From the NCBI RefSeq assembly GCF_024700885.2, contig NZ_CP117016.1: a stretch of 64,000 nucleotides of DNA; one strand, written 5' to 3'. The notes beneath the pieces are model-generated. The model did not search any database, had not been told where the DNA came from, and was given only the letters and a program-made list of their open reading frames with translations. This document shows positions 26,803 through 26,885 of this stretch, piece after piece (within the stretch, counting starts at the first letter, position 1; each line of letters starts with the position of its first letter). The position numbers were made by a program, and so were the translations under genes. The DNA comes from Escherichia coli. GTDB taxonomy: Bacteria; Pseudomonadota; Gammaproteobacteria; Enterobacterales; Enterobacteriaceae.

Positions 26803-26885
26803 CCGCCATCCGGGCTAGCAGTATGACGACGAATCCGAACTGCACTACAACTGGCACCGGTACTACAATCCGGGACAGGGACCAG
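26803..26885 (+). pseudogene. Orphan remnant of an Rhs core 3' end
   Basis: Translation LRHPG*QYDDESELHYNWHRYYNPGQG matches the conserved Rhs core end ([27 protein letters not shown]) and contains an in-frame TAG. Confidence 0.45.

Follow-up and report, generated by a model that had tools for sequence, protein, structure and literature searches.

The window, by which we mean the whole 64,000-nucleotide stretch of Escherichia coli DNA analyzed, carries a T6SS-linked rhs locus consisting of Hcp, VgrG and two rhs genes, followed by yafV, ivy and fadE. Behind the second rhs gene and its immunity-like gene lies a 94-nt orphan fragment of an Rhs core end, which abuts a complete insertion sequence (Table 1). 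Both rhs genes (17931-21578 and 22117-26065) look dead: Rhs1 lacks ~600 nt after the PAAR region when compared with strain AR434 (L003; L numbers denote loci of other genomes, with coordinates of their own) and is labeled 'missing N-terminus' by PGAP, and Rhs2 is broken into three ORFs. The nonsense codon in the Rhs2 toxin tip is a change relative to AR434 and 2012C-4502, and an 82-aa ORF (26099-26347) is the in-frame remainder of that toxin. The two immunity ORFs, at 21591-22040 and 26348-26746, are both intact.

Table 1. Features at and around the orphan core-end stub, in window coordinates
Feature	Position	Strand	Remarks
Variable toxin tip of second Rhs	25898-26347	+	nonsense codon (TGG to TGA) at 26063-26065; part of co-inherited block
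Immunity-like gene	26348-26746	+	132 aa; WP_000425547/WP_000425544 type; lies before the stub, or before the full orphan, at all loci inspected
Orphan Rhs core-end stub	26789-26882	+	31 codons: LEQLLRHPG, stop, QYDDESELHYNWHRYYNPGQG; TAG at 26816-26818
ISEc1/H-rpt (ISAs1 family)	26883-28173	+	1291 bp; ends CAGGGAAAGATCACG... and ...CGTAATCTTGCCCTG; left terminus CAGGG...
Unrelated DNA right of the IS	28174-28250	+	77 nt; not a continuation of the orphan
Second H-rpt copy, right end	28251-28307	+	last 57 nt; resident of the yafV locus

The core-end stub and its homology

Read from LEQ at 26789, the stub frame passes through LLRHPG and the TAG stop and then runs as QYDDESELHYNWHRYYNPGQG to 26881/26882. 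The peptide on which the original prediction was based is present and corresponds to 26801-26881; the limits proposed for it, 26803-26885, need adjustment at both sides, since the end overshoots 3 nt into the insertion sequence and Rhs homology already begins at 26789, 12 nt before the peptide. That the stub contains an in-frame stop and that no core lies upstream of it were both correctly noted: no open frame joins the stub to the upstream YD-repeat core, a TGA at 26786-26788 and the TAG blocking the way, and the 42 nt between the stop codon of the immunity gene (26744-26746) and 26789 are AT-rich and unrelated to Rhs.

The 31-residue translation of the stub matches the NCBIfam family NF041261 (RHS_core) with an E-value of 2e-7 at positions 1199-1229 of 1261, and the RHS repeat-associated core domain TIGR03696 with an E-value of 1.2e-6 and 28.9 bits; truncation of the domain at position 43 of the 76-position profile keeps this score below the curated cut-off of 32.5 bits. 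At the nucleotide level, a blastn search of 28 Gb of complete E. coli genomes aligns 71-82 nt of the stub with annotated E. coli RHS core genes (76-79% identity, E 4e-7 to 1e-6), and the longer orphan as query aligns with E. coli RHS core ends at 80-81% over 124 nt (E 1e-16). Direct alignment of the stub with the two core ends of the window gives the common block CCGGG.CAGCA..ATGA.GA.GA.TC...CTG.A.TA.AAC.G..ACCGGTACTA..A.CCG...CAGGG. The stub is furthermore 98.5% identical to the 5' end of a full orphan pseudogene in AR434 (L003 7043-7136). A short sequence (94 nt) with an in-frame stop might be non-coding DNA that resembles an Rhs motif by chance, but we regard this as practically inconceivable in view of the HMM and blastn E-values and of the near-identity to the start of a complete orphan that itself passes TIGR03696 (82.7 bits). 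The likeness to Rhs core ends proposed by the original prediction is thus well beyond chance in the nucleotide alignment that had been suggested as its check.

As far as is visible, the stub is functionless today. Start codon, DPxGL motif and toxin are all lacking, and the frame stops after codon 9; the PxxxxDPxGL motif that closes the core is not found in the window, where insertion sequence follows directly after ...NPGQG. No promoter- or terminator-like site was found overlapping 26789-26882, no minus-strand ORF of at least 40 aa covers the stub, and no family overlaps it in an Rfam scan, whose sole match is a chance one inside the insertion sequence. The longest exact match between the stub and the resident cores is ~12 nt, which is probably too short for homologous recombination. 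A piece of 31 codons with an in-frame stop, no start codon, no toxin and so short a match to the cores therefore appears to do nothing now. PGAP leaves it unannotated in a genome identical to the window (strain 1190, L001).

The complete orphan cassette and the lineage of its core

Used as the query of a distant search, 26747-26882 recovers this sequence from 553 of the 5426 complete E. coli genomes. The match is 98.5% identical in 471 of these and falls there within a pseudogene to which PGAP gives the name 'RHS repeat-associated core domain-containing protein'. Of the 5426 genomes, 397 (~7%) have 80% or more of the 948-nt orphan, placed after the same upstream immunity gene. The complete orphan toxin/immunity pair that had been recommended as an object of comparison thus exists at the same position in other E. 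coli, as in AR434, where it occupies L003 7043-7988 directly after the same immunity gene. The gene order there is VgrG, a full-length Rhs, the same 132-aa immunity gene and then the uninterrupted orphan, which has the same core end with its TAG, keeps the DPxGL motif (as DPIGL) and reaches a stop at 576 nt from the start, with a small ORF behind it. This small ORF is frameshifted in AR434 and intact in Z142-6, where it encodes 114 aa. The continuation of the orphan contains a Tox-WTIP toxin domain (PF15654; Pfam E 2.4e-13). Since the complete orphans carry the TAG too, this stop predates the truncation seen in the window.

Partial core, toxin and immunity gene, the three parts that define an orphan rhs-CT/immunity module, occur together in AR434, UID2309220010 and Z142-6 and not in the window; the window feature is accordingly a remnant of such a module and not a member. 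In all three of these genomes, the intact orphans that we opened, the orphan lies at rhsE, between yncH and pptA. PGAP flags longer variants of the stub as partial pseudogenes with an internal stop (L007 7001-7108; L003 7043-7618). Other insertion sequences are also found in this cassette, ISCro1 of the IS66 family splitting the stub in Z1322HEC0005 (L004 7107-9844) and IS3 splitting the toxin in Z142-6 (L028 4773-5935).

The core end of the orphan differs in ancestry from the cores beside which it lies. By residue identities counted by hand from the sequences, the stub matches the resident core end, which closes with [NH]RYYDPLQG, at 19 of 31 residues (61%), and core ends of the Citrobacter/Salmonella type at 24-25 of 31. 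The closest core ends still attached to an Rhs protein in a search of 5.8 billion proteins are from Salmonella, Citrobacter and Enterobacter, for example C. freundii P0086. Aligned over 88 nt with the end of the core in a full-length Rhs of C. freundii (L032 2771-2858), the stub DNA shows 87.5% identity, whereas no core end of E. coli exceeds 81%. Because it is closer to the Citrobacter/Salmonella core ends than to the resident core, the stub is not a degraded copy of Rhs1: the original prediction, right in seeing a core end, needs refinement in this respect. Judged by these similarities, the fragment is of another core lineage, which would have arrived together with its tip.

Salmonella enterica has a homologous Tox-WTIP orphan with an immunity gene behind a VgrG-Rhs-immunity array, 71% identical in nucleotides over 904 nt. 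In this orphan (L029/L030 6001-7230), ~130 aa of RHS core are joined to Tox-WTIP, and the immunity gene behind it encodes 111 aa. Among the matches listed, no full-length Rhs has the Tox-WTIP tip attached, the tip being an orphan in both genera.

The H-rpt junction and probable movement between rhs loci

The insertion sequence to the right of the stub is labeled 'ISAs1 family transposase' by PGAP and has the characters of that family: its ORF (27027-28163, 378 aa) encodes a DDE transposase (Pfam DDE_Tnp_1_assoc, E 1e-31; DDE_Tnp_1, E 1.3e-28), and its terminal inverted repeats match by eye at 16 of 21 positions. The last base of the stub, 26882, immediately precedes the left terminus of the element at 26883, so that the H-repeat element named in the original prediction as a possible interrupter does truncate the orphan in the window. 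In a megablast search with 26740-27030, H-rpt/ISAs1 homology starts at query position 144, which is window position 26883, in 5328 genomes, and stub and insertion sequence are contiguous in 157. These counts bear on whether the stub could be a piece of Rhs core captured by the element and traveling with it, a reading to which the joint occurrence of stub and insertion sequence at two chromosomal loci lends some color. We consider it very unlikely: the inverted repeats set the limits of the element at 26883-28173, homology begins at its terminus in the 5328 genomes while the stub is included in just the 157, and the stub always follows the same immunity gene and runs on into the toxin without the insertion sequence in 397 genomes. 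Matches to H-rpt that start 6-8 nt earlier (query 136-137) were rejected as stub carriers, their flanks gcaggggCAGGG and acagaggcCAGGG being alike by chance or through target preference.

What is missing from the window can be read from AR434, relative to which 1,111 bp are absent (L003 7137-8247). The missing stretch starts with the R codon of QGR, reaches up to the left end of the H-rpt downstream and comprises a spacer in addition to the toxin, the immunity gene and the remainder of the core end. A second junction joins the same insertion sequence end to the same orphan 26 nt further in, reading ...ATCACACAGACCCGATAGGG followed by CAGGGAAAGATCACG (...CCGATAGGG followed by CAGGGAAAG); it is represented by L007 and found in 117 genomes, which leaves ~40 of the 157 with the window-type junction, and 29 of these ~40 are identical to the window across the insertion sequence and its right flank. 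Because the two nested end-points share one intact terminus of the element, as expected of such an event, the evidence points to an IS-associated deletion as the cause of the distal loss, and not to gradual decay.

The flanks of the element, ggacagggac on the left and gctttattat on the right, match at 2 of 10 positions, and there is no target-site duplication. A simple insertion can leave one, as in strain 2012C-4502, where an H-rpt copy (L009 3131-4421) has a perfect 10-bp duplication, but since most H-rpt copies examined lack duplications, their absence here is weak evidence for a deletion. The H-rpt downstream of the intact orphan of AR434 has a different left-terminal variant, CAGGGAAAGATCATCAGAAG..., from that of the window element, CAGGGAAAGATCACGTAACG..., and AR434 is therefore not the direct precursor. 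No intermediate with the insertion sequence inside the orphan and the distal half of the orphan to its right was found. A continuation of the orphan to the right of the element in the window was likewise rejected, the expected peptide being absent from 28174 onward in all three frames.

The H2/L002 locus was considered as an IS-free empty site and rejected, as 15 nt from the element's left end persist there in front of a group II intron fragment. This intron (5' end GTGTGCCGTAGGCAC...) follows nucleotide 15 of the H-rpt left end at L002 8159, L004 9859 and L005 2847, with ltrA present at 10346-11646 in L004 and just a 5' fragment remaining in L002 and L005.

The position of the junction in different genomes is informative about its history. 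The window-type junction occurs at the yafV/T6SS locus in several lineages and also at rhsE, in DETEC-C31 and Z1322HEC0005, which implies that the cassette has moved between rhs loci. The block made up of the toxin tip (from ~25898), the immunity gene, the stub and the insertion sequence is 98.5-100% identical to blocks at the rhsE locus of other strains, and the core upstream of the block is a mosaic, with 54-97% identity. In the window, the complete imported insertion sequence comes directly after the stub; foreign DNA (77 nt) separates it from the resident H-rpt, of which the last 57 nt are present. The 77 nt are 93-98% identical to DNA annotated as 'transposase' in other genomes, and 28174-28307 as a whole is the scar of an IS-IS rearrangement. 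In strain N3, the insertion sequence after the stub has a right end of the type resident at yafV. Going by these alignments, the stub was probably made elsewhere than at the yafV locus and imported by recombination.

That the footprint is one of a displaced C-terminal module, as originally predicted, is borne out by the intact orphan in other strains; the accompanying idea of repeated module replacement in situ is probably not right, because the near-identity of the block to rhsE-locus blocks argues for import by recombination instead. The same comparison weighs on a displacement scar formed at this locus, in which the tip would once have belonged to the locus's own Rhs, been pushed downstream and then eroded by point mutations and small deletions. 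The classical layout of main rhs, tip, immunity gene and downstream core fragment is in keeping with such a scar, and unattached tips of this kind have been described by Jackson et al. 2009 (PMC2935791). We nevertheless hold a local scar to be improbable, given that the core end is just 61% identical in protein and 77-81% in DNA to the resident cores and nearer to Citrobacter and Salmonella, that the truncation point is the exact terminus of an insertion sequence, that the block is nearly identical to rhsE-locus blocks elsewhere, and that all three intact orphans inspected lie at rhsE.

We are thus confident, if short of certainty, that an orphan rhs tip cassette has left its 5' end as a non-functional stub at 26789-26882 and lost its distal part in an IS-associated event. 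Such an event may have taken one of two courses: the left end of the H-rpt resident downstream could have made an adjacent deletion, or the orphan could have received a new H-rpt copy, with recombination between this and the downstream copy as a second step. The composite of toxin tip, immunity gene, stub and insertion sequence would later have been copied between rhsE and the T6SS-linked rhs locus beside yafV, with the Rhs core on the left and H-rpt on the right possibly serving as the homology for exchange. A transfer from rhsE to yafV is the direction suggested solely by the sites of the intact orphans in the three genomes inspected.

H-rpt target sites and comparison with known systems

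The sole lead of wider reach from this analysis is that H-rpt ends may favor CAGG(G) sites in Rhs genes. Conceivably, though we give this only a minor chance, H-rpt/ISAs1 joins preferentially to CAGG(G)-like sites that look like its termini, among them the Q-G(-R) codons at the ends of Rhs cores, and so repeatedly truncates rhs tips and supplies right-hand homology for the transfer of tip/immunity cassettes. Three independent junctions between the insertion sequence and a core end fall within ~30 nt (the window type, the L007 type and L009 2712), two H-rpt copies (L023 and L026) lie within Rhs repeat ORFs, and eight of the independent H-rpt left flanks inspected end in CAGG(G)-like sequences: acagggac, gcagggg, acagaggc, gataggg, atcagg, tccagg, atcaggg and gggccag. 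Against a preference, CAGGG is only ~2-fold enriched in Rhs cores on the coding strand, and the sample of flanks is small and phylogenetically non-independent. If true, the preference could explain the long-noted and unexplained association of H-rpt with Rhs elements.

The left-flank sites are at window 26875-26882, L005 3000-3006, L006 3001-3008 and L007 7113-7119 and in L013, L022, L023 and L026. The L009 junction (2669-2800), present in 3 genomes only, has the right end of H-rpt, with a 43-nt duplication of that end, abutting the distal half of another Rhs core end, (G)RYIIQDSIGLKGGW, at the same QG/R codons as the window junction and on the opposite side of the insertion sequence. Contigs with E. 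coli-type H-rpt also occur in metagenome-assembled genomes labeled Proteobacteria, Nanosynbacter, Collinsella and Flavobacterium psychrophilum (L011, L012, L019, L020); these probably represent bin contamination, the flank in L019 being equal to E. coli yafV-locus sequence.

The stub is an ordinary genomic scar, a known kind of feature, and its value is that of a clean and dated example in which an rhs locus has lost a spare toxin cassette by IS-associated deletion at a precise terminus and not by slow decay. It further illustrates the exchange of toxin tip/immunity gene blocks among the rhs loci of E. coli. In annotation, the 94 nt deserve a flag as a partial RHS core pseudogene, as PGAP gives to the slightly longer variant; the pseudogenes that it names 'RHS repeat-associated core domain-containing protein' have the same sequence as the stub and are slightly longer.

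The H-rpt or ISEc1 of E. coli Rhs elements, a member of the ISAs1 family, was reportedly described by Hill and co-workers in the 1990s. The window element is like it in length (1291 bp), in its CAGGG...CCCTG ends, in its 378-aa DDE transposase and in its place at the distal end of an rhs locus. It shows no difference of its own, and the single new detail is that the orphan is cut off at the left terminus of the element, at two positions in different strains. In the literature searched, whose scope stopped short of the 1990s H-rpt papers, we found no earlier account specifically of orphan tips being truncated by H-rpt. Orphan or unattached rhs tips and the presence of H-rpt at rhs loci have both long been known (PMC2935791; PMC3150448; PMC3032704). 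The feature resembles the orphan rhs-CT/rhsI modules (PMC2935791; PMC3150448) in lying downstream of a main rhs/immunity pair and in starting with a core-end fragment, and the copies of other strains share with those modules the DPxGL motif, a polymorphic toxin (Tox-WTIP) and an immunity gene. Unlike such modules, the window keeps 31 codons only, and its core fragment is of a different lineage from that of the resident rhs. Jackson et al. 2009 stated that tips at one locus carry core sequence of the same clade (PMC2935791), and the foreign core lineage of the stub is a mild departure from that statement.
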